Virus record (IMG/VR): IMGVR_UViG_3300020187_003193
Strand: one strand, 5' to 3'
Origin: a virus
DNA: 64,000 nt
Numbering within the stretch: position 1 is the first letter of the stretch; each line of letters begins with the position of its first letter. Below are positions 12,901 to 63,672 of the stretch, piece by piece. The position numbers and the translations under genes were made by a program. The notes beneath the pieces were generated by a model, which did not search any database, was not told the origin of the DNA, and worked only from the letters and a program-made list of their open reading frames with translations.

Positions 12901-13902
12901 ATGGATAACTTCAACCTAAAGAACTTCATTAACGAGAACAATCTCGGCGCATACTCTAGAATGAAAGAAGATACAGTAAGCGAACAATCAGCGTTCGTAT
13001 TAGCAGCAGATGCAGCTAGAGATGCTGGTAAAGATGAATTCGAGTTTCCTGAAGGAAGCGGTAAAATGCATAAAGTCAAATTAAAGCAAGACATTCCTGT
13101 AGAGGAAGGTATGGGTGGAGAAATGGCTGAAATATTAGGTGCTTTTCTTGCCTTAGTTGGCGCTGGAAAAACAGCACTCGAAGCCGTTAAAATCTTAGGA
13201 GACGAGCACGGAGACATATCCATTAGCAGTATCAAAGATGCTATCAAGCAATACAAAGCATCTAAAAAGATAGGTGAAGAATTAAGCGACGAAGAAGCAG
13301 ACAAATTCCACACTAAATTAGACAACCTCGTTCACAAAACATTCGGTCCAAGTAGCGACGAAAAAGAAATGAACGAAGAACTTTCAATGAAAGATATCAC
13401 TTCAGGTCAAAGATCATATCAACAAATGAAGCCCTATTTTATAGCAAAAGTAATAGGATTAAAACCCGAAACAGAACAAAAAGCATCTGAGTTAGTTTTA
13501 AAGAAAAGCAAGGCATTCCCAGGTATGACCCAAGTTATAAAAACAGCCAAAACACCAGAGGAAGTAGAAAATGTAGTATTCTTTGATGGATATCCAGATG
13601 AAGACCAAACTATACGCTTCTCAGGATTGGAATATGAACTATATCAAGTTACACCAAATCCTAAAATTGACAGATTAAAAGAAGAAGCTTCCGGATTAGA
13701 ATTTAAAGTAGGAGATAAAGTAACATATCTAGGACACCCAGGTACTATTACAAATGCTGGAACAGATATAATGGATAGACCTATATATAGTGTATCTTAC
13801 AATAAAGGAACAGGCGATACAAAAGTTACCAACGTTTACAATAAAGGTGGTGAAATTAAGCCTATGAAAGAAAATTCACTTAATCTATCAGACGCTCTTT
13901 AA
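12901..13902 (+). CDS. Putative head-internal modular polyprotein
   Basis: Leader MDNFNLKNFINE; MKE, VSE, VEE, MNE, LKE junctions; FKVGDKV SH3-like module. Confidence 0.7.
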   Translation: MDNFNLKNFINENNLGAYSRMKEDTVSEQSAFVLAADAARDAGKDEFEFPEGSGKMHKVKLKQDIPVEEGMGGEMAEILGAFLALVGAGKTALEAVKILGDEHGDISISSIKDAIKQYKASKKIGEELSDEEADKFHTKLDNLVHKTFGPSSDEKEMNEELSMKDITSGQRSYQQMKPYFIAKVIGLKPETEQKASELVLKKSKAFPGMTQVIKTAKTPEEVENVVFFDGYPDEDQTIRFSGLEYELYQVTPNPKIDRLKEEASGLEFKVGDKVTYLGHPGTITNAGTDIMDRPIYSVSYNKGTGDTKVTNVYNKGGEIKPMKENSLNLSDAL

Positions 13903-15509
13903 TGAACAAAAGTCAATTCATACAACTACTAGAACAAGAGGTAGAGGATTTTATCCAAACCCAAGCCGAAAAGGTCGTTAAATTCGAAGACGATCCAATG
14001 GCATACATACTTCAAAAGTATCCTTCATTACAAGGTACTTTAGAGGATTTAATGACTAGTAGCTTTGAAGACTACATTACAGGCATATATGTAATGGCAC
14101 CTAAGCCAACTACATTCAAAGTCTTACTACACAACGGACAACAATTCTACCTTATATATGCTAGGGATTCTTACATAGCAAAAATATCAGGTAAAAAATA
14201 CTACTTACTTAACCTTGGTGAAGAAGAATACGCTATTAAAGCAATAGCAGATTTACTTACAATGGGTAAACCTCCAGGATCACAAGGGCCTGACGCTGAA
14301 GAAGAAAATACCACTAACGCTGGTGAAGAAACAGAAGAAGTACCAGCTGAAGGAGGCGATGAAGGTGGAGAAGAAGAATTGGCAGAAACTAAAGAAAAAG
14401 TAGAAAAGCCAGTTAAAAAATCCATACTTAAATTTAAGATTTTAAAAGAAGACATAGAAAAAAAAAAGTCTCCTCTTAAATTCCGCATCTTAAAAGAATC
14501 CGATTTCAATGCTTTAACATTCTTCGATTTAGCTAAACGAGGAGGATTTAGATTTCAAATATTAGCAGACAAAATCAAAAATGGTTCGGCATTTGAATTA
14601 GTGGGCGGCGAATCAACACCACTACAATTCATAAACCCTGACCATGCTGAAATATTTGCTATTGGGGATTCAGCTGAAATCAAAAAACTAGCCCCCACCA
14701 ACTCAAATTTATTTAAATTCTTCAAAGACGACGCTGGTAAGGAATATTCTATAAAGGACTTACAGAAAAACGCTGAATTTGGAGGTAGAGGTAAAGGATC
14801 TGGAACAATAGTAGAAGATTACAATCTTAAATTACTTAAAGACCAGATAGCTAAACTAAAAGAAGAAAACAATACTTCATCCATAAATGTTTCTGTAGGA
14901 GGAAAAGTATACAACGATATAGTAGATGCTGAATCACAATTCGGTACCCCTAAATCAGATTTTAACTTAGTAGACAGCAAAGGCAACCCAGTTGTCTTTA
15001 TATCACATAAAAAAGCAGGGGGGAAAGGCGCCTCAGCAAACGATTTCATCAGATGGAGTGGATATACAATGTATAAAAACCACCCTGAAGTAAAGGCATT
15101 TAACGAGGCATTAGCTAAATGGGTAGACGAAAACAACCCTGGTGAAGGTTTACCTAACAAAACACGCTTTATATCTCGTATAGAGGATAAAGAACTTATC
15201 CAAAAACTTATATACGGACCAAAATTCGGTGAAGGGTTTAGCAAAGACAATGTATCTATTATTTTACAAGGTAAAATCGATCTTAGCCCTAAAGGAGACA
15301 ACACATACGAATTAACATCTCAACACGATCAAGTTCCACCTTCAATACCTGAAGGAGAATATTACCCATATCTTACATCAGCATATAGAGCAGATAGAGA
15401 AATGTTCGGTATTAAAAACAACGAAGCTATAGTAATGACTAAAGCACAATCAGGAAAATCGTCAAATGTATACGAACTCCAGAACGGAAAGTTTGTTAAA
15501 GTGAGATAA
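13902..15509 (+). CDS. Two-part protein: unknown N-terminal domain + PD-(D/E)XK-like nuclease domain
   Basis: Acidic linker and ILKE junctions, then TPKSDF...FISHK restriction-endonuclease-like motif. Confidence 0.65.
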   Translation: MNKSQFIQLLEQEVEDFIQTQAEKVVKFEDDPMAYILQKYPSLQGTLEDLMTSSFEDYITGIYVMAPKPTTFKVLLHNGQQFYLIYARDSYIAKISGKKYYLLNLGEEEYAIKAIADLLTMGKPPGSQGPDAEEENTTNAGEETEEVPAEGGDEGGEEELAETKEKVEKPVKKSILKFKILKEDIEKKKSPLKFRILKESDFNALTFFDLAKRGGFRFQILADKIKNGSAFELVGGESTPLQFINPDHAEIFAIGDSAEIKKLAPTNSNLFKFFKDDAGKEYSIKDLQKNAEFGGRGKGSGTIVEDYNLKLLKDQIAKLKEENNTSSINVSVGGKVYNDIVDAESQFGTPKSDFNLVDSKGNPVVFISHKKAGGKGASANDFIRWSGYTMYKNHPEVKAFNEALAKWVDENNPGEGLPNKTRFISRIEDKELIQKLIYGPKFGEGFSKDNVSIILQGKIDLSPKGDNTYELTSQHDQVPPSIPEGEYYPYLTSAYRADREMFGIKNNEAIVMTKAQSGKSSNVYELQNGKFVKVR

Positions 15510-15516
15510 AAATATT

Positions 15517-15524
15517 ATATTTAT
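15517..15524 (+). promoter_or_regulatory. ATATTTAT putative late promoter with no ORF downstream
   Basis: Followed by about 80 nt of non-coding sequence and a terminator. Confidence 0.55.
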
Positions 15525-15529
15525 AATAA

Positions 15530-15610
15530 ACATACAGACAGATTCATAGCCTGTCGCGATTAAAAAAATTATAGGAGCTGTGGCCCACCTTTTGGATGGG
15601 CCACACTTTA
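15530..15610 (+). ncRNA. Candidate small RNA / riboswitch-like leader
   Basis: Stem GACAG/CTGTC with loop ATTCATAGC, A-rich tail, and possible loop pairing with GCTGTG at 15577-15582. Confidence 0.4.
15579..15610 (+). terminator. Intrinsic terminator-like hairpin
   Basis: TGTGGCCCA/TGGGCCACA 9-bp stem followed by CTTTATT. Confidence 0.65.
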
Positions 15611-15620
15611 TTCGTATATT
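15592..15620 (+). promoter_or_regulatory. sigma70-like promoter for FAD oxidoreductase
   Basis: TTGGAT-N17-TATATT. Confidence 0.65.
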
Positions 15621-15642
15621 TAATGGTTAAAAAGAAAAACAA

Positions 15643-16950
15643 ATGCCGAAACACGTAGTAATTATTGGAGCTGGAGTAGCGGGCGTAAACGCTGCCACAA
15701 AATTAGTTGACAACAATTTTGATGGAAAAATTACCATAATTGATATGGGAAAAGATCCATACAGACGTCCTTACGATGACGTAATGACCGGATTTTTAGG
15801 AGCAGGTGGTTGGTCAGATGGTAAATTAACATACCACACATCAATTGGTGGTCAACTATCAAAGTACACAGGCGAGGACAAAGCAATGGAGTTAATGGAT
15901 CAAGTGATCGAAAACTTCAAACGTTTCCACCCTAAACCAGAAGAAGTACAATGTTCAAATCCTGTAGCTGAACCCGATTTCATCAAACCATACTTTGGTT
16001 TACGTTTGTTTCCTGTATGGCACGTAGGTACAGATTATCTACACGAAATAGGTAAAAATTGGTTCGATTATCTAAAGTCTAAAGGTGTAGAATTTGTTTG
16101 GGAAACTAAAGTAAACGATATCGACTTCGATAGCAATATAGTACATGCTGGTGGAAGAGAAATACAATATGATGAACTTATCTTTGGTGTAGGTAAATCA
16201 GGTATCGACTTTGGTAAACAATTAGCTGAAAAATATGAATTACCAACTGAACCAAAATCAGTACAAATTGGTGTGCGATTCGAGGCACCACAAGAACACT
16301 TCCAAAAACTAATCGATGTATCTTACGATTTCAAATTGTATAGAAAATTCGAAGACGAGGGAGTATCGCTACGTTCATTCTGTACAAACAACAATGCAGC
16401 ATATGTAGCAGTAGAAGAAACATATGGAGATCATACGTACAATGGTCACGCTAAAAAAGACGAGAAGTTTAGAAACAACATGACAAACTTCGGTATTTTG
16501 ATGGAAATTAACGGTATAGAAAAACCATTTGATTGGTCAAGAAACGTTGTTAAACATGCACAAGGTATAAACTACGATACAAAAACAACAACAGGTCTAT
16601 ATTATAGCCCATCACGTAAACCATCAACAACATCTGAGGGTAAAGATGTATCTGCGATACAAATTGGACCTGCCGATTATGCTGAAGTACAAGAAGAATT
16701 TGGTGGATATTACAAGTACATAGAAGACTTCATCAATGATATGAAGAAAGTATTCCCAACACTTAAAAACGATTGGGGAGTTTACATACCAGAAGTCAAA
16801 TATTTATCACCAGAACCATTAGTAAATTATAATAATTTAAGCCTTACAAAATATGACAACGTCCACTTCGTCGGAGATGCTCTCTCAGCTAGAGGAATTA
16901 CAGTATCTGGAGCACAAGGAATCTACGTTGCCGAAGACATTATCGGATAA
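15643..16950 (+). CDS. NAD(P)/FAD-dependent oxidoreductase
   Basis: IIGAGVAG Rossmann motif, GAGGWSDGKL, C-terminal FVGDALSARGITVSGAQG. Confidence 0.9.
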   Translation: MPKHVVIIGAGVAGVNAATKLVDNNFDGKITIIDMGKDPYRRPYDDVMTGFLGAGGWSDGKLTYHTSIGGQLSKYTGEDKAMELMDQVIENFKRFHPKPEEVQCSNPVAEPDFIKPYFGLRLFPVWHVGTDYLHEIGKNWFDYLKSKGVEFVWETKVNDIDFDSNIVHAGGREIQYDELIFGVGKSGIDFGKQLAEKYELPTEPKSVQIGVRFEAPQEHFQKLIDVSYDFKLYRKFEDEGVSLRSFCTNNNAAYVAVEETYGDHTYNGHAKKDEKFRNNMTNFGILMEINGIEKPFDWSRNVVKHAQGINYDTKTTTGLYYSPSRKPSTTSEGKDVSAIQIGPADYAEVQEEFGGYYKYIEDFINDMKKVFPTLKNDWGVYIPEVKYLSPEPLVNYNNLSLTKYDNVHFVGDALSARGITVSGAQGIYVAEDIIG

Positions 16951-17764: not shown

Positions 17765-18187
17765 ATGAAGAAGAAGGCAGTTATAGTATCCGGATACTTT
17801 AACCCAATTCACAAAGGACATCTTGAGCTCTTCACGAAAGCGAAGGCTCAAGGTGATTACCTTTTTGTAATTGTAAATTCGGATTTGCAAAGAGAATTAA
17901 AGGGTTCAAAAGAATTCCAAGACGAAGTTGAACGTTTATTAATAGTACAAAGCCTCAAAAGGGTAGATGGTGCTATGGTATCAATAGACGAAGACAAAAC
18001 ACAATGCAAAACAATCGAGATGGCTTACAAATTACTATCAGACGAATACGATTTAGCTTTTGCAAATGGTGGTGATCAAAATAACCATTCTATACCAGAG
18101 GCTGGGATATGTGAAGCACTTGGCGTATCTTTAATAGATGGTTTAGGAGATAAAATACAATCTAGTAGTTGGTTATTAAATAAATAA
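17765..18187 (+). CDS. HxGH cytidylyl/adenylyltransferase (TagD/RfaE-II/RibL-like family)
   Basis: IVSGYFNPIHKGH, VIVNSD, ER..IV.SLKRVD, KIQSSS. Confidence 0.85.
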   Translation: MKKKAVIVSGYFNPIHKGHLELFTKAKAQGDYLFVIVNSDLQRELKGSKEFQDEVERLLIVQSLKRVDGAMVSIDEDKTQCKTIEMAYKLLSDEYDLAFANGGDQNNHSIPEAGICEALGVSLIDGLGDKIQSSSWLLNK

Positions 18188-18190
18188 GTT

Positions 18191-18721
18191 ATGAAAATAG
18201 GTTTATGTGGTACAATGAGTGTAGGTAAAACTACATTAGTAAATGCTTTACAGCAATTAGAACAATTTAAAGGATATGAATTTGCTACTGAGCGTAGTAA
18301 ATATTTAAGTGGTTTAGGTATTCCATTGAATACTGATTCTACATTAAAAGGTCAAACAGTATTTTTAGCTGAGCGTTGTGCCGAATTAATTCATGATAAT
18401 ATCATTACAGATAGAACTGTAGTTGATGTAATGGCGTTTACAGAAAATGCTAAATCAATTGATTTTAAAGATAAAGAATATTTTAGTGAATATGCTAGAA
18501 ATTTCTTAGGTGAATATGATTATATATTCTATATTTCACCTGTAGGGATTGATATAGAAGATAATGGTGTTAGAGAAACTGATGCAAATTATAGAATGAC
18601 AATCGATGATTCTATATTACATATATTAAGTAGTTTTGGTCATAGATGTAAAAATGTACATGAATTAAAAGGTACAACTAATGAACGAATTGAGCAAATG
18701 CTCGGGTTTATTCAAGGTTAA
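18191..18721 (+). CDS. P-loop kinase (AAA_28/NadR-kinase-like)
   Basis: GLCGTMSVGKTT, ITDRTVVD, YDYIFY. Confidence 0.8.
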   Translation: MKIGLCGTMSVGKTTLVNALQQLEQFKGYEFATERSKYLSGLGIPLNTDSTLKGQTVFLAERCAELIHDNIITDRTVVDVMAFTENAKSIDFKDKEYFSEYARNFLGEYDYIFYISPVGIDIEDNGVRETDANYRMTIDDSILHILSSFGHRCKNVHELKGTTNERIEQMLGFIQG

Positions 18722-19773: not shown

Positions 19774-21357
19774 ATGGCAGAAAACCTAAAAGATATAATT
19801 AAATCCGAATTCATCAAGTGTGCCCAAGATCCGGTATACTTTATGAAAAAATATTACATGATTCAAAACCCACAAAAGGGTCGAATCAAGTTTAACTTAT
19901 ATCCATTCCAGGAACAAGTTCTCCGCCACATGCAAAACGAGAACTACCTTATAATAAACAAATCTCGTCAGTTAGGTATATCAACACTATGTTCTGCATA
20001 TGCTTTATGGATGATGTTGTTTCAAAAGGATAAGAACGTGCTGTGTATCGCAACAAAGCAAGAAACGGCGAAAAACATGGTAACCAAAGTACGATTTGCG
20101 TATGACCAATTACCAAAATGGCTGCAAATTAAAACAGTTGAACACAACAAACTATCCCTACGACTCGCAAACGGATCACAAATTAAAGCTACATCAGCAT
20201 CATCAGATGCAGGACGTTCAGAAGCAGTTTCTTTGTTACTAATAGATGAGGCAGCTTTTATTGATGGTATTGATGAGATATTCGCTTCAGCCCAACAAAC
20301 ACTAGCAACTGGGGGTGGATGTATAGCATTATCTACACCTTATGGTACAGGTAACTGGTTCCATTCTACATGGGTTAAAGCCGAAGCAAGAGAAAATACA
20401 TTTATTCCTGTACGTTTACCCTGGACTGTTCACCCTGAAAGGGAACAAGATTGGCGTGACCAACAAGATATTATTCTTGGAAATAGAATGGCAGCCCAAG
20501 AATGTGATTGCGATTTTAGCACATCCGGGGACACTGTAATAGAACCAGATATACTTAATTTTTATGATAAAACATTCCTACAAGAACCCGTTGAGCGTAG
20601 AGGAGTTGATGGAAGTTTATGGGTATGGGAAATACCAGATTATACAAAAACATATGTTGTAGTAGCCGATGTCGCTCGTGGAGACGGACAAGATTACTCA
20701 GCATTTCATGTATTTGATATAGAAGAAGCTACACAAGTGGCCGAATTTAAACAACAATTATCAACAAAAGACTTCGGTAACGTACTATATTCAATAGCTA
20801 CCGAATATAACGATGCTTTACTCGTAGTTGAAAACGCAAATATTGGATGGGCTGTAATACAACAGCTAATAGACAGAGGATATCGCAATCTTTACTATTC
20901 TCCCAAAATGGATGTAGGAATGGGCAACGCTGATCAGTATATTTCACGTTTCGAGAATGGGCAAGGTATGGTACCTGGATTCACTACATCAATGAAGACG
21001 AGACCACTTGTTATCTCCAAAATGGTTGCGTATGTTCACGAGAAGGCAGTTACAATACGTTCAAAACGTTTACTGGAAGAATTAAGAACATTCGTTTGGA
21101 AACATGGTAAAGCACAAGCACAAAATGGCTATAACGATGATTTAGTTATGGCATTTGGTATTGGTATGTTCTTAAGGGATACAGCATTACGTTTCCAACA
21201 ACAAGGAGTAGATATGGCGCGAGCAACATTAGGAAGTGTACATTCCACTAACTATCAAGCACCAAATGTTTACAGCGGTAATTCACAAATGCAAAATCCA
21301 TATGAAATGAAGGATTCGCATGGTAACAACGAAGACATTTCTTGGTTATTAGGTTAA
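19774..21357 (+). CDS. terL: Terminase large subunit (T4 gp17-like)
   Basis: NKSRQLGIST, LLLIDEAAF Walker B, LSTPYG, VADVARG and DDLVMA nuclease motifs. Confidence 0.95.
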   Translation: MAENLKDIIKSEFIKCAQDPVYFMKKYYMIQNPQKGRIKFNLYPFQEQVLRHMQNENYLIINKSRQLGISTLCSAYALWMMLFQKDKNVLCIATKQETAKNMVTKVRFAYDQLPKWLQIKTVEHNKLSLRLANGSQIKATSASSDAGRSEAVSLLLIDEAAFIDGIDEIFASAQQTLATGGGCIALSTPYGTGNWFHSTWVKAEARENTFIPVRLPWTVHPEREQDWRDQQDIILGNRMAAQECDCDFSTSGDTVIEPDILNFYDKTFLQEPVERRGVDGSLWVWEIPDYTKTYVVVADVARGDGQDYSAFHVFDIEEATQVAEFKQQLSTKDFGNVLYSIATEYNDALLVVENANIGWAVIQQLIDRGYRNLYYSPKMDVGMGNADQYISRFENGQGMVPGFTTSMKTRPLVISKMVAYVHEKAVTIRSKRLLEELRTFVWKHGKAQAQNGYNDDLVMAFGIGMFLRDTALRFQQQGVDMARATLGSVHSTNYQAPNVYSGNSQMQNPYEMKDSHGNNEDISWLLG

Positions 21358-29769: not shown

Positions 29770-29777
29770 ATATTTAT
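29770..29777 (+). promoter_or_regulatory. ATATTTAT putative late promoter
   Basis: Motif immediately after the terminator. Confidence 0.55.
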
Positions 29778-29781
29778 ATAC

Positions 29782-30009
29782 ATGATAATCTCCGAAATAC
29801 CATTTGCTGTATTCCTTGAAAGGAATCCCTACCTAAAAGGTAGGCCTTTAAATGAACAGTTTGTACATTACAACGATTATCTACAAGTAGTTCACTTACA
29901 ACAACAAAGCATTGTAAACAGAGGAGGAGATTCCGATTTCCTTCTACAAGAAGACGGCTTTAAAATATTACAAGAAGACGGAAATTCCGGTATTTTAATA
30001 AAAACATAA
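29782..30009 (+). CDS. Small hypothetical virion protein
   Basis: 75 aa; FLLQEDGFKILQEDG repeat typical of phage fibre-attachment peptides. Confidence 0.6.
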   Translation: MIISEIPFAVFLERNPYLKGRPLNEQFVHYNDYLQVVHLQQQSIVNRGGDSDFLLQEDGFKILQEDGNSGILIKT

Positions 30010-30011
30010 TA

Positions 30012-31118
30012 ATGGCAAATTTACCTATATCTAGATTAGTATCAGGAACGCAAGCAAACGACGGCGATAAATTCGTTTACGTACAGCAAGGAATTACTAA
30101 ACAAGTTGATTATGGTGATCTTCAATCCTCTATAGTAACCGATGTAGACTATATTGACTTTAATACAAGTTCAGTAGTTACAGGTAAACCTGGTAGATTA
30201 CGTTGGAACGATGTTGACGGTACTTTAGATTTAAGTCTTAAAAATGGGAATGTAACATTACAAATTGGGCAAGAAATCAATATTAATGCATATAATAACG
30301 AAACCGCATCATTATTAGAATCAGAATATAGGGCTGTCTATGTAAGCGGTTCAGTAAGCAACTTCCCAGCAGTTAATCTAGCATCTAATTTAGATAGACG
30401 TTCTTCAGAAAATACTATAGGAATTGTAACAGAAGATATAGCAGCAGGAGAACTTGGTTATATAACAACTCAAGGAATGGTTAGAGACATTGATATGAGT
30501 GCCTACAATCCTGGCGATACTTTATACTTAGGTGCCAATGATGGGATATTATTAAATGAACCCCCTCTTCCACCTGCACTTACAGTTATTATGGGGTACT
30601 GTATAAATAACGATGCTACAACGGGTTCAATGTATGTTAATGTTAGAAGTGGATTTGAATATCCACAATATGCCATTGCATATAACTTATCTGACCATAC
30701 TGCTTCAGCTGATACAGCAACAATAATTGACTTTGATACACCTCAAGTATTAAGCGGAATATCACTCATAAGTGGTTCCCAATTTACAGTATCAACCCCA
30801 GGCCTATATGAATTTACCGTACTCTCTCAGATAAACCGAGCTGCAAGTTCGGGTACTGCTACATTATATTTTTGGGCAAAGAAAAATGGAGTAGATATTC
30901 CAAATTCAAATAATAACCAAAGTATAACGGGAAATACCGGTACTGCTGCAACCTTAATGAGTAAAAATCTTGTTATAGTATTGGAGGAAGGTGATTATGT
31001 TGAATTTTATTGGGCAACAACTGATGCTGATATGATACTAAAATATACCGCAGCAAGCTCCACCCCTACTAGACCAGCAACAGCAGCAGTAAAAGTTACA
31101 GCAACAAGGTTAAGTTAA
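30012..31118 (+). CDS. Fibre/decoration protein with C-terminal C1q/BclA-like domain
   Basis: MANLPISRL N-terminus; GTLYL capsid-cement-like middle; FTVSTPGLYEF...LEEGDYVEFYW C-terminus. Confidence 0.65.
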   Translation: MANLPISRLVSGTQANDGDKFVYVQQGITKQVDYGDLQSSIVTDVDYIDFNTSSVVTGKPGRLRWNDVDGTLDLSLKNGNVTLQIGQEININAYNNETASLLESEYRAVYVSGSVSNFPAVNLASNLDRRSSENTIGIVTEDIAAGELGYITTQGMVRDIDMSAYNPGDTLYLGANDGILLNEPPLPPALTVIMGYCINNDATTGSMYVNVRSGFEYPQYAIAYNLSDHTASADTATIIDFDTPQVLSGISLISGSQFTVSTPGLYEFTVLSQINRAASSGTATLYFWAKKNGVDIPNSNNNQSITGNTGTAATLMSKNLVIVLEEGDYVEFYWATTDADMILKYTAASSTPTRPATAAVKVTATRLS

Positions 31119-48174: not shown

Positions 48175-48182
48175 ATATTTAT
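48175..48182 (+). promoter_or_regulatory. ATATTTAT putative late promoter
   Basis: Motif upstream of ATG 48203. Confidence 0.6.
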
Positions 48183-48202
48183 GATAAACATACTATAACG
48201 TT

Positions 48203-48412
48203 ATGGGATTATTAGACAAAATTACAAGAAAAGAACAAGCAGCTCCTTCAACACCTAAGATATCTAAAGAAGACTTATCTTTAAATGCTGAAGAAACAAA
48301 AATTTTATTACACTTAATTAAAAATAGTAATTTTAAAGGAGATAGTGTAGAATTAGTATACGAACTCACTAAAAAACTCCAGTCAGTACTTACGGTTCTG
48401 TCTCAAAATTAA
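48203..48412 (+). CDS. Small helical protein (fibre assembly helper candidate)
   Basis: 69 aa between fibre genes, with its own promoter. Confidence 0.65.
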   Translation: MGLLDKITRKEQAAPSTPKISKEDLSLNAEETKILLHLIKNSNFKGDSVELVYELTKKLQSVLTVLSQN

Positions 48413-48419
48413 TATTTAT
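48412..48419 (+). promoter_or_regulatory. ATATTTAT putative late promoter
   Basis: Motif 70 nt upstream of ATG 48489. Confidence 0.65.
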
Positions 48420-48426
48420 ACTGGAG

Positions 48427-48479
48427 TATTATCGGCCCCTAGGGGAAGTGGACATCCTATGATGTAACCAACCATAATA
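48427..48479 (+). promoter_or_regulatory. Candidate three-way-junction RNA in the fibre gene 5' leader
   Basis: P1 TATTAT(C)GG/CCATAATA, P2 CCC-CTAG-GGG, P3 TGG-ACATC-CTAT-GATGT(AA)CCA. Confidence 0.55.
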
Positions 48480-48488
48480 AAATAGTAT

Positions 48489-51400
48489 ATGCCAAATTGG
48501 AAAAAATTAATCGTCAGTGGTTCTGACGCAAACCTATCTTCATTACACGTAGCAGGAGCATTAACCGCCTCATCTGCTTACTTAGAATCTGCCTCAATTG
48601 GTCATTTACAGACCATATACGAGACAGCTTCCGTCATTTATAGCTCAGGTTCAACCAAATTTGGAGATACACCAGATGATACTCATGAAGTAACTGGTTC
48701 TTTACTAGTTAAAGGAAACACAAATGTAGAAGGTCACATTATACCTTCCAATGACAATACCTACGATTTAGGTTCACCTACTAAACAATTTAGAGATTTA
48801 TTTTTATCCTCTGCCTCTTTATATATTGATGGAACAAAAGTTCTATCTTCTAATGCAGATACACTTACTTTTACAACAGATGTAGGACAGAGTATAAAAT
48901 TACTAGAGACAGGAGGAGACGATATAACTCTTCAAACTGATACGGGTAATATAGAATTAAAAGGAACTGTAGAAATACAATCCGGTAAAAAAATCACAGA
49001 TAGTTCAGGTAATATAGTATTATTTGGAAATTCTATAGGAATAACAGGTAGTATAGAAACTACGGGAACAATAGATGGTATAGACCTGCAAGCATATTCA
49101 GGATCAATTAATACTAGAATCATATCATTAGAATCGGGTTCAGCAGATGGTACATCAGGAAGCTCAGGATCTTCAGGATCATCGGGTTCATCAGGAACAT
49201 CAGGTTCATCTGGATCTTCAGGTAGCTCAGGTTCTTCAGGTACAAATGGTACAGACGGAACTTCAGGATCATCTGGCTCATCAGGAACATCAGGCTCATC
49301 AGGACCTTCAGGTTCATCTGGTACATCTGGTAGCTCGGGTACTTCAGGTTCAAGTGGTTCAAGTGGTACATCCGGTAGCTCTGGTACTTCAGGTACAAGT
49401 GGTTCATCAGGAACATCAGGAAATTCAGGCTCAAGCGGTTCTTCAGGTTCATCAGGATCTTCAGGTTCATCTGGTACAGATGGTACATCAGGTTCAAGCG
49501 GATCTTCAGGTTCATCAGGAAGTTCAGGCTCAAGTGGCTCTTCAGGTTCATCTGGTACATCCGGAAGCTCGGGCTCATCAGGTACAAATGGTACAGATGG
49601 AACTTCAGGCTCATCAGGTTCATCAGGTACTTCTGGAGAACAGGGAATACAGGGAGAAACAGGCCCTGCTGGTGACAATGGTACATCAGGAAGTTCAGGA
49701 TCTTCAGGATCAGATGGAACTTCAGGTTCATCAGGTACTTCAGGTGTAGATGGAGCAGACGGAACATCCGGTAGCTCAGGTTCATCTGGAATAGATGGAA
49801 CAAGTGGTGTTGATGGAACTTCAGGTTCTTCAGGTACATCAGGAGAAGCAGGCTCAAGTGGCTCATCAGGTTCATCAGGTTCTTCAGGAACATCTGGCGA
49901 AACCGGCCCAACAGGCCCAGCAGGTAATGACGGAACATCAGGAAGCTCAGGTTCTTCAGGTGCAATTGGCCCCGTAGGTCCCTTAGGACCAACAGGACCA
50001 ACAGGAGCACAAGGTCCAACAGGACCACAAGGAGTAGCAGGTACAGGTATCACAATGCAAGGTAGCGTTGCGACAACAGGAGATTTACCTAGCTCAAACA
50101 ATACACAAGGTGATGCTTATATAGTCCAAACAGACGATTCACTTCATATATGGGATGGAACAGTATGGGTAAGTGGAGGTTCAATTCAAGGACCAACTGG
50201 TCCAACAGGAGCTACAGGACCAACTGGACCAACTGGACCACAAGGTTTAACAGGATCTGATGGAGCAACTGGCCCAACAGGACCAACTGGAGCATCAGGT
50301 ACATCAGGAAGTTCAGGTTCATCCGGAGCAACCGGAGCTACAGGAGCTACTGGCCCACAAGGTGCTACAGGACCTGCAGGTACTTCTGGTTCTTCAGGAA
50401 CATCAGGAGCTACAGGAGCTACTGGCCCACAGGGTGCTACAGGACCACAAGGTGCAACTGGACCAACAGGCGCAACAGGAGCAACAGGCGCTTCAGGTAC
50501 ATCAGGAAGTTCAGGAACATCAGGAGCAACAGGCGCAACAGGTGCAACTGGAGCATCAGGTACATCAGGCTCTTCAGGCACATCGGGTTCATCAGGAACA
50601 TCAGGAAGTTCAGGAACATCAGGCGCAACAGGAGCCACAGGTGCTACTGGTCCACAAGGTGCAACAGGTCCCGCAGGAACATCAGGTTCAAGTGGTACAT
50701 CTGGAGCAACAGGAGCCACAGGTGCAACTGGAGCTACTGGAGCATCAGGTACATCGGGCTCATCTGGAACTTCAGGTTCATCTGGAACATCAGGTGTAAA
50801 TGGAGGAACTGGACCAACAGGACCTACTGGAGCAGCAGGAACATCAGGTTCATCAGGAACATCAGGTGCTACAGGACCTACAGGACCAACAGGCGCAAAA
50901 GGTAATACTGGAAATACTGGACCTACGGGCCCAACAGGAGCAACAGGTGCTTCAGGAACATCAGGTTCTTCTGGTACATCAGGTACAGTTCCCTTTGCTA
51001 CTGCAGCGGTAACAAGTACAACTACTACAGCTTTTATTTCTGAGTTGTATAGTGATGGATACTTAGCTACAAACTCACTTAGAGCAGGAAAAACATCTTG
51101 GTCATATGCAGGAAATGGTGATTTATCAGATACAGGATATGGTACCTTCGAATTAGCAGGCTGTTCTATATTAGGATGGGATGCTGGAGGGCTTGAAACT
51201 GTAATGGTTATTAGACCCACTACTGGGGGTGGAGGAGGACAAATCCTAGTTTATAATAACCAGTCCACATCATATTCACCAGGCTGGAGACAAATCCTAA
51301 CATCAACTACAGACGGATATCTACCTAGGTTGTATGATACAAACAACACAAACTATTATTTAGATCCTGCAAGTACATCTGTTTTTAATACAATATCTGC

Positions 51401-55666: not shown

Positions 55667-55674
55667 ATATTTAT
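55667..55674 (+). promoter_or_regulatory. ATATTTAT putative late promoter
   Basis: Motif upstream of ATG 55693. Confidence 0.6.
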
Positions 55675-55692
55675 ATATATAAAAACACAGTT

Positions 55693-55950
55693 ATGGCATT
55701 ACAACAAAACAGAGTAACAGAAGAGGAATTAAACGAAATCGAACAATTCCAAAAAAACATTAACCAATTAACATTTCAACTAGGACAAATCACACTAAGA
55801 AGAATGGATCTAGACCAACAAGAAGAAATTCTAGAATCAAGACACTTAGAACTACTTAAAGATGAAAAACAACTAGGAGATAAGTTAAAAGAGAAATATG
55901 GTACTGCTCAAATAGACCTAAAAACAGGCGAACTTAGTACTATCGAATAG
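55693..55950 (+). CDS. Small coiled-coil protein
   Basis: 85 aa; LKEKYG.AQIDLKTGE C-terminus. Confidence 0.7.
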   Translation: MALQQNRVTEEELNEIEQFQKNINQLTFQLGQITLRRMDLDQQEEILESRHLELLKDEKQLGDKLKEKYGTAQIDLKTGELSTIE

Positions 55951-55970
55951 TATTTTTAAGACTCTTTCAC

Positions 55971-55978
55971 ATATTTAT
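55971..55978 (+). promoter_or_regulatory. ATATTTAT putative late promoter
   Basis: Motif upstream of the sheath gene. Confidence 0.65.
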
Positions 55979-56003
55979 CGTTGATAAAATAATTTAACAA
56001 ACA

Positions 56004-57731
56004 ATGGCTGAAACATTACTATCCCCAGGAGTATTAACACGTGAAAACGATCAAACGTTAATCACACAAGGTCCTATCACAGCAGGTGCTGCTATTTTAG
56101 GCCCTACTGTAAAAGGTCCTGTTAACGTACCTACGTTAGTTACTTCTTACAGTGATTATAAAAATAAATTTGGTGGCTCTTTTTCAAGTGCAAGTATTAA
56201 TTACGAATACTTAACTTCAATTGCTGCTTACAACTACTTTACACAAGGTGGAGAAACATTACTTGTAACACGTGTTGTTAATAATGGAGATGGTGATTAT
56301 ATTTCTGCAACAGCAGAAATTACAGCAGAAACTGGATCATTTACACTAGAAACATTATCAGTAGGTGAAATAATGAACAACTCAGGAAGTGTATCTGAAA
56401 GTGGTTCATTAAATCAAGGTACTGTAGACAACGTACGTTGGGAAGTTGCTAACGTAAACACAGGAAGTGGTACTTTCAACTTATTAATCCGTAGAGGAGA
56501 TGATAATAGTAAGTCAAAAACTATCCTAGAATCATTTACAGAATTATCATTAGATCCAAATTCACCAAACTATATCGAACAAGTAATTGGTAACCAAGCT
56601 AAAGTATTAGCTACGGATAGCGATGACAATATCTATATTGAAACTACAGGTTCTTATGTAAATAACAGCCGTTACGTAAGAGTATCTTCTGTAACAGATC
56701 CTACATACAACTATTTCGATAACGACGGTATTGCAAAAACATTATACGCGGGACATTTACCTGTTGTAGGTAGTGGTTCACTAGAAGGAGCTTTCGATAG
56801 CGCAACTGGAGCACTATATGGTAGTGGTTCTAACGGAACATTAGGAATGTTCGAAGGAATTAATTCAGACAGTATCCAAGGTTTATTACCTGACAACTAT
56901 ACATCTTCATTATCATTATTACAGAACGAAGACGAATACGATTTCGAAATTCTAATCGTTCCTGGAGCTACAATTGAAAATGCTTCTGCTACAGTAGCTT
57001 CTGCAATTTCAACAGTAACAGAAAGAGGAGATGCAATAGCGGTAGTAGATACTAGAGATTACGGCGCTACATTAAACCAAACAATCACATCAGCACAAAC
57101 ACAAGATTCAAGTTATGCTGCAACATACTGGCCATGGGTTCAAGTATTATCAAACGAAACTGGAAAGTTAGTTTGGGTACCTGCATCAACCGTAGTACCA
57201 GGAGTATACGCAACTAACGATAGATTAGGAGCTGAATGGTTCGCACCTGCTGGATTCAACAGAGGTGGAGTAGGCGGAGTAATCCAAGCTGAAAGAAAAT
57301 TAAGCCCTGCAGATAGAGATAAACTATACTTAGGTAAAGTAAACCCAATCGCTACATTCCCAGGACAAGGTCCAGTAATATTCGGACAGAAAACATTACA
57401 ATCAAAAGCAACAGCTTTAGATAGAGTAAATGTTAGAAGATTATTAATTGAACTTAAGAGAACAATTGGTAATGTTGCTGAAGGATTATTATTCGAACAA
57501 AATACAGCTGCAACAAGAAACAGATTCTTAAACCAAGTTAACCCTTACTTAGAATCTATCCAACAAAGACAAGGATTATATGCCTATAGAGTTGTAATGG
57601 ATGATACAAACAACACAGCTGATATAATTGATAGAAATCAAATGGTAGGACAGATATTCATCCAACCAACTAGAACAGCAGAATATATTATCCTAGATTT
57701 CAACGTAACACCGACAGGGGTTGAATTCTAA
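56004..57731 (+). CDS. gp18: Tail sheath protein (T4 gp18-like)
   Basis: SPGV..RE.D, YWPWV, WFAPAGFNRG, FGQKTL, DRVNVRRL, FEQN, IFIQPTRTAEYI.LDF. Confidence 0.97.
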   Translation: MAETLLSPGVLTRENDQTLITQGPITAGAAILGPTVKGPVNVPTLVTSYSDYKNKFGGSFSSASINYEYLTSIAAYNYFTQGGETLLVTRVVNNGDGDYISATAEITAETGSFTLETLSVGEIMNNSGSVSESGSLNQGTVDNVRWEVANVNTGSGTFNLLIRRGDDNSKSKTILESFTELSLDPNSPNYIEQVIGNQAKVLATDSDDNIYIETTGSYVNNSRYVRVSSVTDPTYNYFDNDGIAKTLYAGHLPVVGSGSLEGAFDSATGALYGSGSNGTLGMFEGINSDSIQGLLPDNYTSSLSLLQNEDEYDFEILIVPGATIENASATVASAISTVTERGDAIAVVDTRDYGATLNQTITSAQTQDSSYAATYWPWVQVLSNETGKLVWVPASTVVPGVYATNDRLGAEWFAPAGFNRGGVGGVIQAERKLSPADRDKLYLGKVNPIATFPGQGPVIFGQKTLQSKATALDRVNVRRLLIELKRTIGNVAEGLLFEQNTAATRNRFLNQVNPYLESIQQRQGLYAYRVVMDDTNNTADIIDRNQMVGQIFIQPTRTAEYIILDFNVTPTGVEF

Positions 57732-61608: not shown

Positions 61609-61616
61609 ATATTTAT
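61609..61616 (+). promoter_or_regulatory. ATATTTAT putative late promoter
   Basis: Motif upstream of ATG 61639. Confidence 0.6.
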
Positions 61617-61638
61617 AACAAACCCAAATAATAATAAT

Positions 61639-61839
61639 ATGGCAATCTTAGGAACAGAATTAAATTCTAGTTTAAGTAAAGGTGGAAAAACAGAAAACAC
61701 CCTTAGTGCTCAAAAAGAATCTCAATTGCACAACTTGGCTTCTTTAACAGGAAAAGGTTTATCCCCTACTAAAGTACCTTCACAATTAGATTTAGACGGA
61801 GTTACACCTGCAAAGTACGTAGACAACAAACCACAATAA
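61639..61839 (+). CDS. Small hypothetical structural protein
   Basis: 66 aa; SQLDLDG.TP.KY motif; abuts the next ATG. Confidence 0.6.
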   Translation: MAILGTELNSSLSKGGKTENTLSAQKESQLHNLASLTGKGLSPTKVPSQLDLDGVTPAKYVDNKPQ

Positions 61840-63672
61840 ATGGCACTAAAAGATCTATACAACGATCCAGCTAGCTTCAAATATAATTCTAAAGACAATA
61901 AGTACAGTAAGGATATTAGAGGTGGGGGATATTCAGGACAACCTTGGCAAAAGGTAAGCGCTCCTGAAACAATCGACCAGCTTAATTCTTTAACTACTGA
62001 AGCACTTAGTTTGGATTATCCTATACGTGGTGGTTCCTATGAGGAACTAGCTGCAAGGAAAGACTTTGCTCGTATAGATGCTTTTTTACTATCTTACCCA
62101 CAAGGTAAAGCCTTTTTAGATAAACAAAAAGGTTTAATGTTTTCAAACCCACTTATGGAAAGTGGAAGATCAGGAGGTGACGTAAACACTAGATTATATA
62201 GTGATGGGCGTAACTTAATGACCCAAATAGCAGAGGGTGGAACGGGCTTCCGTCATCCTAATGCTGGTAGAACATTAAACGATTTAGAGTTTGTAGAAAG
62301 AAAATATGAATACGTTGTTTCTCATAAAGCTACACAACAAAATAGACTAGTTAATTTACTTAATATAAAAATTAACAACGAATCTCCTGGAGATTTATTA
62401 TTCTCTAATGAAGCTTCTAAACTAGGAATAAACACAGTAGATCAAGGTGAATTATTCTTCTATTCAGGGGGCCCAGGTTCACTATATGGTCTAGGACAAA
62501 CTATAATTAGAAGAGCAAGGGATTCTAAAGGTGTTCCTATTATAACAAGTAATGCTCCCTCATATATAGGTCCTAATTATAAAAGTGGACTTTATAGTTC
62601 ACAAGTACAGGCTAGACCTGCTACTACCATAGATTATGAGTTATTATTAGGTCCTTCTAAAATATTCAATTTTACTTCAGAAGAAACCGGTCTTACAGAA
62701 AATAATTCCTCTACTTTATCACAACAATCTGATGCTTCTTTTATAAGAGCAAATAAGTCACCTAATCCTGACGTTACCCCTAACTTTCAATATGCAATGG
62801 GGTACGATAGTATTAGAAGTAGACAACAGATAAAACCTGGCTTTACAGGTATTACAGATTTTAGAAAAGACGTTATTAATCCCTCTAGTGTTCAAAAACG
62901 TGATTACTCTAATTCTAGTATAAACAAAACAACTCGTGTTGGTATAGGTAATCCGGGAGCACGAAAAGATAGAACAGACACAAGTACACCTTTTGTAGAT
63001 GGCCAAGATAAAGTGAATATGTACAATATTCAAACTTTAACAGACCCTAAAGGTATTGGAGGTTTTTCTAAAGTAAACGAAAATAGAGATTTAATTAAAT
63101 TTGTATTCGAAACAGTAGACAACGATAATCCATCTAATAGTGATGCTATGTTCTTCAGAGCATTTTTAACAGGATATTCAGATAACCATAGTGCAGATTG
63201 GCAATCTAAAAGATATGCAGGTAGAGGAGAAAATTTTTACACATATCAGGGATTTGATAGAAGTGTTAGCTTTAATTTTAAAGTAGCTGCTCAATCAAAA
63301 CAAGAGATGAAATATCTTTACCGTAAACTAAACTCATTACTATCCTCACTATACCCAGACTATAATAGTGCTGGATTTATGAGAGGAAACATAACTAAAC
63401 TAACATTAGGGGATTTATTTGTTAGAACTCCCGGTATATTAACATCATTAAACCTAACAGTTGATGACCAGTATGCTTGGGAAATAGCAATGAACGAACC
63501 CGAAGGTGGTAGCGATAAGGATATGTTAGAAACCCCACAAATTATAGATGTCGCGGTTTCTTTCAAACCAATCTTAAACACTTTACCTAGAAAAGGTAAA
63601 GATGCTGCTATTTTATTAACAGCAGGTGAAAGTGTTGGTTCAATTGCTTATTCCTGGTTAAATGCACAATAA
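61840..63672 (+). CDS. Baseplate/tail-tube initiator protein (gp48/gp54-like C-terminal domain)
   Basis: FRAFLTGYSDN.SA.W....Y.GRGE.FY.Y.GF.R.VSF.F...PQIIDV tube-like fold. Confidence 0.75.
   Translation: MALKDLYNDPASFKYNSKDNKYSKDIRGGGYSGQPWQKVSAPETIDQLNSLTTEALSLDYPIRGGSYEELAARKDFARIDAFLLSYPQGKAFLDKQKGLMFSNPLMESGRSGGDVNTRLYSDGRNLMTQIAEGGTGFRHPNAGRTLNDLEFVERKYEYVVSHKATQQNRLVNLLNIKINNESPGDLLFSNEASKLGINTVDQGELFFYSGGPGSLYGLGQTIIRRARDSKGVPIITSNAPSYIGPNYKSGLYSSQVQARPATTIDYELLLGPSKIFNFTSEETGLTENNSSTLSQQSDASFIRANKSPNPDVTPNFQYAMGYDSIRSRQQIKPGFTGITDFRKDVINPSSVQKRDYSNSSINKTTRVGIGNPGARKDRTDTSTPFVDGQDKVNMYNIQTLTDPKGIGGFSKVNENRDLIKFVFETVDNDNPSNSDAMFFRAFLTGYSDNHSADWQSKRYAGRGENFYTYQGFDRSVSFNFKVAAQSKQEMKYLYRKLNSLLSSLYPDYNSAGFMRGNITKLTLGDLFVRTPGILTSLNLTVDDQYAWEIAMNEPEGGSDKDMLETPQIIDVAVSFKPILNTLPRKGKDAAILLTAGESVGSIAYSWLNAQ

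Follow-up and report, generated by a model that had tools for sequence, protein, structure and literature searches.

What is encoded in the 133-nt gap that, in the genome of this phage, separates a 535-aa ORF of unknown function (13902-15509) from the gene for an FAD-dependent oxidoreductase? The window, by which we mean the whole 64-kb stretch of DNA analysed, is read throughout on the + strand and encodes T4-type structural and packaging genes, including a T4-type large terminase identified in a family scan (19774-21357). Judged by this terminase, the nearest isolated phages are Flavobacterium myoviruses (61% amino acid identity), which are without the oxidoreductase, and a megablast search against the phage collection found no isolated phage with a match at the DNA level. 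A preliminary description of the gap had proposed that it gives rise to an ORF-less late transcript, acting either as a new attenuator in which a hairpin loop pairs with part of a terminator, or as a standalone small RNA. The sequence features on which that description was built, namely the octamer ATATTTAT at 15517, the P1 hairpin, the A7 run and the 9-bp terminator, were all found in place (Table 1).

Results

IMG/VR phage contigs yielded at least 139 distinct sequences in which an element with this organisation lies in front of the same oxidoreductase gene, and most loci encoding relatives of the oxidoreductase carry it within the upstream 150 nt. Since it is conserved in relatives, the element is not a chance structure, and since the upstream neighbour gene differs between loci, it travels with the oxidoreductase. 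Additional loci were obtained by a gene-blind pattern scan for the two loop motifs, in which every match that possessed a P1 stem preceded the oxidoreductase, with nothing or with one or two small ORFs inserted in between (encoding, for example, a GIY-YIG endonuclease or Pyr_excise-like protein). An alignment-based search contributed a further set of loci, more divergent than the first, and supplied extra covariation; a single divergent homologue used as the query returned no viral loci. At least 120 pattern matches in bacterial and archaeal genomes were set aside as chance matches, as P1 and L2 occurred together in none among the matches listed. The covariance model matched once in the 64-kb window and once per related locus, with the exception of a duplication in L049 (see below), and always before the same gene.

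Table 1 Features of the intergenic element and of the operon downstream
Feature	Position	Strand	Remarks
ATATTTAT, late-promoter-like motif	15517-15524	+	Present here and in a small number of relatives; not among the conserved parts of the element
A/U-rich 5' flank, consensus AACAUAYA	15528-15536	+	Conserved (column profile); in many relatives includes the TAA stop of the upstream gene
Hairpin P1	15537-15555	+	5-bp stem 15537-15541/15551-15555 (35 distinct stems); near-invariant 9-nt loop L1, 15542-15550
A-rich linker	15556-15573	+	A7 run at 15562-15568; in roughly one relative in four, a small additional hairpin immediately follows P1
Hairpin P3	15574-15586	+	2 bp here (15574-15575/15585-15586), closing 9-nt loop L2, 15576-15584
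Kissing helix K	15544-15583	+	L1 15544-15549 with L2 15578-15583; seventh pair 15550/15577 present here
Predicted intrinsic terminator	15579-15612	+	Hairpin 15579-15605 (-20.2 kcal/mol, window fold); U-rich tail 15606-15612
Predicted host-type promoter	15591-15622	+	TTTGG box 15591-15595, 17-nt spacer, TATATT box 15615-15620
FAD-dependent oxidoreductase	15643-16950	+	435 aa; downstream of every real element
HxGH nucleotidyltransferase	17765-18187	+	Pfam/NCBIfam scans; co-oriented, downstream of the oxidoreductase
AAA_28 kinase	18191-18721	+	Pfam/NCBIfam scans; co-oriented, downstream of the oxidoreductase

The region folds better than shuffled versions of itself (minimum free energy -32.9 kcal/mol against a mean of -18.5; z = -4.6). 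As the preliminary description had pointed out, the L1 bases 15545-15550 are complementary to 15577-15582 in the 5' arm of the terminator, and compensatory changes in homologues back this pairing. The pseudoknot that it had drawn from this complementarity is not of the plain H-type, however: the hairpin P3, which covaries and had been missed, puts the downstream partner strand into the 9-nt loop L2, so that two 9-nt loops meet in a kissing-loop contact. Within each loop, two unpaired bases lie 5' of the kissing helix K and one lies 3' of it. The whole element is compact, at about 70 nt. Across the 139 sequences the P3 stem varies from 2 to 5 bp, and the linker, when parsed to include the 5' strand of P3 and the first base of L2, measures 19-39 nt with a mode of 21-24. 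The G-U wobbles on the + strand, together with two conserved U-G pairs in K, identify the folded molecule as the + strand RNA, and the U tail likewise marks this strand.

To count base pairs, a covariance model was built from 55 sequences and 101 distinct sequences were aligned to it. P1 was paired in 98.7% of cells, with double changes at all six of its pairs, the sixth being optional and present in about a quarter of sequences. The six pairs of K were paired in 100% of cases, with not one unpaired cell among the 101 sequences, and yet they are not invariant: compensatory double changes were seen at three pairs (C:G to U:A; A:U to U:A; G:C to U:A or A:U), alongside one-sided compatible changes from U:G to U:A at a fourth pair and from G:C to G:U at one of the double-change pairs. 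In P3 the two inner pairs were close to 100% paired, with 43-45 double changes, and a third pair was 86% paired. None of 500 column shuffles reached any of the observed covariation measures, and controls in which the partner strand was slid along the alignment paired in 28-49% of cases as against the 92% observed. Covariation across these alignments therefore supports P1, K and P3 alike, and the check that the preliminary description had proposed, covariation among homologous loci, came out in favour of both the stem and the loop pairing. An apparent trade-off between a short P3 and the seventh pair of K (Fisher p = 0.003) was discarded, as it disappeared once sequences were collapsed into classes.

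Rfam contained no relevant family for this structure, whether the region 15300-15900 was scanned up to E = 10 or six homologous loci up to E = 1. The element shares a short stem, a loop that pairs downstream and an A-rich segment with class I preQ1 riboswitches, a loose resemblance that extends to the 5-bp stem, a loop beginning AUUC and the A-rich stretch after the stem. The preliminary description had noted this likeness and judged that it did not amount to membership, and on this we agree: preQ1 gave no match in the Rfam scan of 15300-15900 up to E = 10, the partner strand lies about 20 nt away inside the loop of P3 and not in an H-type pseudoknot tail, there is no unpaired loop segment for ligand recognition 3' of the kissing strand, and the neighbouring genes are those for the oxidoreductase, the HxGH nucleotidyltransferase and the AAA_28 kinase, with no queuosine genes nearby. 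With covariance model, architecture and gene context all failing, a divergent class I preQ1 riboswitch was rejected, and we regard its probability as negligible.

In the window, the downstream half of the element takes the form expected of an intrinsic terminator, a G+C-rich hairpin followed by a U-rich tail. The hairpin consists of 9 bp, a bulged A and a further 2 bp, and is followed by CUUUAUU; a simple, consensus-based terminator scan did not list it, the tail being interrupted and the stem bulged. Virtually every homologue has a terminator hairpin (mean -19.6 kcal/mol, n = 140), and in 80 of the 140 at least five U occur in the 9 nt that follow it. Its 5' arm is made up of most of L2 (15579-15584), the 3' strand of P3 and three more bases. 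Across homologues the inner stem varies freely, the 5' arm retains the sequence of L2 and the 3' arm tolerates wobble changes.

The bases that follow L2 can pair either with those that precede it or with the 3' arm of the terminator. P3 and the kissing strand double as the terminator 5' arm, and the two folds are mutually exclusive. The competition between loop pairing and terminator that the preliminary description had seen is therefore real, and a classical antiterminator/terminator layout with two mutually exclusive folds is well supported. On average the terminator state is favoured by 13.6 kcal/mol over the state in which both loops are free, and the K duplex contributes only about -4.7 to -7.8 kcal/mol. 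Since freeing the loops costs 13.6 kcal/mol and K returns only some 5-8, the terminator should win unaided, and read-through should require either a kinetic advantage or a stabilising factor. The element also has the two parts seen in riboswitches generally: a covarying structured domain, and an expression platform that shares nucleotides with the candidate sensing domain.

A variant was observed at two loci (L397:52-176 and L400:422-546), in which L2 lies outside the terminator and a separate terminator is followed by ATATTTAT in place of the host-type promoter. In L397 the terminator has shifted downstream but continues to share bases with P3, which counts in favour of the attenuator proposed below.

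The preliminary description had also overlooked what appears to be the operon's own host-type promoter, embedded in the terminator. Its TTTGG box lies in the loop and 3' arm of the terminator and its TATATT box follows the U tail. The spacing in the TTGnnn-N17-TATATT layout is exactly 17 nt in 116 of 139 homologues despite their differing stem lengths. Such a spacing agrees with the sigma-70 consensus and also with the Bacteroidota -33/-7 consensus. The layout is missing in 16 homologues, in some of which both boxes come after the terminator and the terminator loop contains no TTTGG. The conserved motif after the U tail is best read as the -10 box of this predicted promoter and not as a pairing partner for the conserved 5' flank, with which it showed no correlation in the alignment of homologues.

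A terminator that overlaps a promoter brings to mind the promoter-early stem-loop (PeSL) cassettes of T4-type phages (Arbiol et al. 2010, PMC2839356; Comeau et al. 2014, PMC4122927), defined as a stem-loop terminator that overlaps an early promoter, from the upstream stop codon onward (PMC2839356). Like PeSLs, the element is a composite intergenic module of T4-like myoviruses, with an upstream stop codon in an AT-rich stretch, a terminator stem-loop able to overlap the -35 box, a sigma-70-type promoter of N17 spacing just before the next gene, and signs of cassette duplication. It could therefore be a constitutive, if elaborate, module of the PeSL type that senses nothing, in which P1, K and P3 serve as a folding aid, as a fixed "leak setter" for the terminator or as protection for the 3' ends of upstream mRNAs. 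The shared layout of AT-rich stop, stem-loop over the -35 box and N17 promoter fits this explanation (PMC2839356, PMC4122927), and some relatives do manage with a plain terminator and promoter: those oxidoreductase loci that lack L1 lack the L2 sequence too, and retain only these parts. That L1 and L2 are missing together speaks, on the other hand, for attenuation. Nevertheless, PeSLs occur in many copies per genome beside unrelated ORFans in hyperplastic regions and are not gene-specific, whereas the element has the terminator and N17 promoter of a PeSL but is single-copy and linked to one gene family. In addition, described PeSLs have neither an upstream hairpin loop that pairs with the 5' arm of the terminator nor a competing P3. 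A passive terminator would leave unexplained both the two near-invariant, mutually covarying loops and the P3 helix that competes with the terminator, and we consider a purely constitutive role rather unlikely.

One locus (L049:2945-3212) carries the entire element and its promoter a second time, in front of an oxidoreductase copy that ends after 48 codons. The arrangement resembles the cassette duplications that have been proposed for PeSL recombination; with its truncated gene copy it suggests cassette recombination and counts towards the constitutive explanation.

On its upstream side, the element of this phage is preceded by ATATTTAT. The window contains 27 copies of the octamer, all on the + strand and nearly all intergenic, as compared with 10.6 expected and with none of 100 shuffles reaching 27; it is enriched upstream of genes in relatives as well. 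Plausibly, then, ATATTTAT is the late promoter of this phage group. The octamer differs from the T4 late consensus, and its 27 sites, among them 12877, 18721, 21361, 31905 and 57747, mostly have a start codon 12-55 nt downstream. After four of the sites, unusually long gaps of 230-340 nt precede the next long ORF (29770-30012, 48175-48489, 55667-56004 and 61609-61840); two of the four hold a second copy of the motif, and these gaps may contain small ORFs or further RNAs.

No + strand ORF of at least 30 aa was found within 15510-15642, but the ORF-less late transcript of the preliminary description is not a conserved property: of the 139 homologues, no more than 7-10 (about 7%) have the late-promoter motif in the 60 nt that precede the element. 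We therefore rejected a conserved promoter before the element, given that some 93% of homologues lack the motif. The same count bears on the suggestion that the product is a trans-acting small RNA, a terminated molecule of about 75 nt whose free L1 would pair with a target RNA or bind a protein, and which would be transcribed from the late promoter here and, elsewhere, be released by cleavage at the A/U-rich flank in the 3' UTR of the preceding gene. In this phage the motif does lie 12 nt before P1, with a terminator about 75 nt downstream, L1 is near-invariant, and the conserved, single-stranded A/U-rich flank resembles, as we read it, an RNase E-type site. Set against these points, the late promoter is missing in the great majority of homologues, the partner of L1 was found in cis and covaries with it, a trans-acting RNA would not need P3 and K to overlap the terminator, as they do almost universally, and no conserved target site was found at the start of the oxidoreductase gene. 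We judge a trans-acting role to be improbable.

In most cases 5-21 nt separate the element from the stop codon upstream, the gene to which this codon belongs varying between loci; the stop is TAA in 127 of 131 cases. About 70% of homologues have L1 11-21 nt after the stop, the distances peaking at 11 nt and ranging overall from 0 to more than 100 nt, and in this window the stop lies 32 nt before L1 and 27 nt before P1. The common short distance, with the stop often 5-6 nt before P1 and often within the conserved flank, would suit a translation-coupled attenuator, in which a ribosome at the upstream stop blocks P1 and hence K, so that termination tracks the coupling of translation and transcription. 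A distance that varies this widely argues against such an arrangement, as do the 32 nt to L1 in the window, where the putative late promoter intervenes, and short spacers are in any case what a compact phage genome predicts. Coupling to translation accordingly strikes us as very unlikely.

Downstream, the assignment of the next gene to the FAD oxidoreductases, already made in the preliminary description, is supported by a Pfam Pyr_redox_2 match at the N-terminus of its product. Close relatives of the protein number in the hundreds in IMG/VR viral contigs (323 confirmed), and the family has thousands of members in metagenomes. The structure predicted by AlphaFold2 (pLDDT 94) had as its top PDB match 3NLC, an uncharacterised Vibrio flavoprotein, and a PDB sequence search, a fold search and the literature gave only uncharacterised relatives for its function, which means that a ligand cannot be argued from gene context. 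Gene order in the operon is conserved across related loci, with the AAA_28 kinase kept in most and the nucleotidyltransferase sometimes missing.

Several loci depart from this arrangement. In L153:995-3202 the oxidoreductase is split into pieces of 175 and 259 aa by about 900 nt that contain two small ORFs, which could reflect an insertion or an intron-like element. A Pyr_excise-like ORF of 157-168 aa lies between promoter and oxidoreductase in L106:5493-6659, L132:5894-7099 and L180:5006-6148, where the oxidoreductase ORF begins 35-50 codons late and is without its N-terminal dinucleotide-binding motif. In L103:8383-8988 and L192:7240-7833, an ORF for a GIY-YIG-type homing endonuclease is found between the element and the oxidoreductase gene.

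Discussion

The three helices, their overlap with the terminator, the association with a single gene and the geometry of the promoter are established by the comparison of homologous loci. The "new attenuator" of the preliminary description emerges as the best reading. In the form that we favour, with moderate confidence, the element is a cis-acting, conditional and gene-specific transcription attenuator, built on a PeSL-like terminator/promoter cassette before the oxidoreductase operon.

Such an attenuator would work as follows. In an antiterminator fold (fold A), P1 and the short P3 would present two 9-nt loops that form a kissing helix of 6-7 bp. In the alternative terminator fold (fold B), most of L2, the 3' strand of P3 and the next bases would pair with the downstream arm, and transcripts derived from upstream would stop. 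A factor that stabilises the kissing complex, whether small molecule, metal ion or protein of phage or host origin, would let transcription read through into the operon. Because the operon's own promoter lies downstream of the switch region, the switch can govern read-through transcripts only; it would be an ON switch for transcripts from upstream (late) promoters, and the embedded host-type promoter would drive expression that is unregulated and probably early. Conditional termination and the sensing of a factor are what we infer from the architecture, from the energetics and from how strictly the element is linked to one gene. Several features count against attenuation: the operon is served by a predicted promoter of its own, the element has no conserved upstream promoter, P3 is short (2-4 bp, and 2 bp in the window), the linker differs between homologues, a binding pocket would have few conserved unpaired nucleotides to draw on, and gene context points to no particular ligand. 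More tentatively, the kissing complex might itself be the aptamer of a new class of riboswitch in marine flavobacterial T4-like phages, in which binding turns on late read-through of the operon; this we consider conceivable, if somewhat doubtful. Its ligand would be a small molecule or an ion linked to the pathway of the operon, for example a nucleotide or dinucleotide cofactor or a breakdown product.

Parallels for individual parts of this design can be found among known RNAs. The pbuE adenine riboswitch is a transcriptional ON switch in which a domain stabilised by loop-loop contacts shares a strand with an intrinsic terminator. As in ON riboswitches of this type, the stabilised domain of the element would prevent termination, and there is a strict tie to one operon; unlike pbuE, however, the element is much smaller, is without a three-way junction or obvious pocket, and has a promoter downstream of the switch. 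Guanidine-II (mini-ykkC) riboswitches control translation and consist of two small hairpins whose conserved ACGR tetraloops engage in a functional loop-loop pairing. The element likewise comprises two small hairpins with conserved pairing loops, but these loops are of 9 nt and form a helix of 6-7 bp, the second hairpin lies within the terminator, and there was no Rfam match. In its loop geometry the element resembles the HIV-1 DIS, where a 6-bp helix forms between 9-nt loops, each with two bases left unpaired on the 5' side of the helix and a single base on the 3' side. In the kissing complex of ColE1 RNA I and RNA II it is the Rop protein that provides stability, which shows that a kissing helix can be bound and stabilised by a protein. 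Both of these contacts are intermolecular and act in dimerisation or the control of replication, whereas that of the element is intramolecular and competes with a terminator. A catalogue published in 2023 (PMC10690425), which covers 8,495 candidate structured RNAs from IMG/VR, could already include the element.

Few phage-encoded regulatory RNAs have been characterised, and this candidate is abundant, being carried by hundreds of marine phage contigs. Its architecture, with an intramolecular kissing loop as the antiterminator, is unusual, and the small size and clear alternative folds of the element make testing in vitro direct. The element illustrates how a generic T4-type terminator/promoter cassette can gain a gene-specific control module. 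Identification of a ligand or of a protein partner would define a new class of switch and offer a first functional handle on an uncharacterised flavoenzyme operon.
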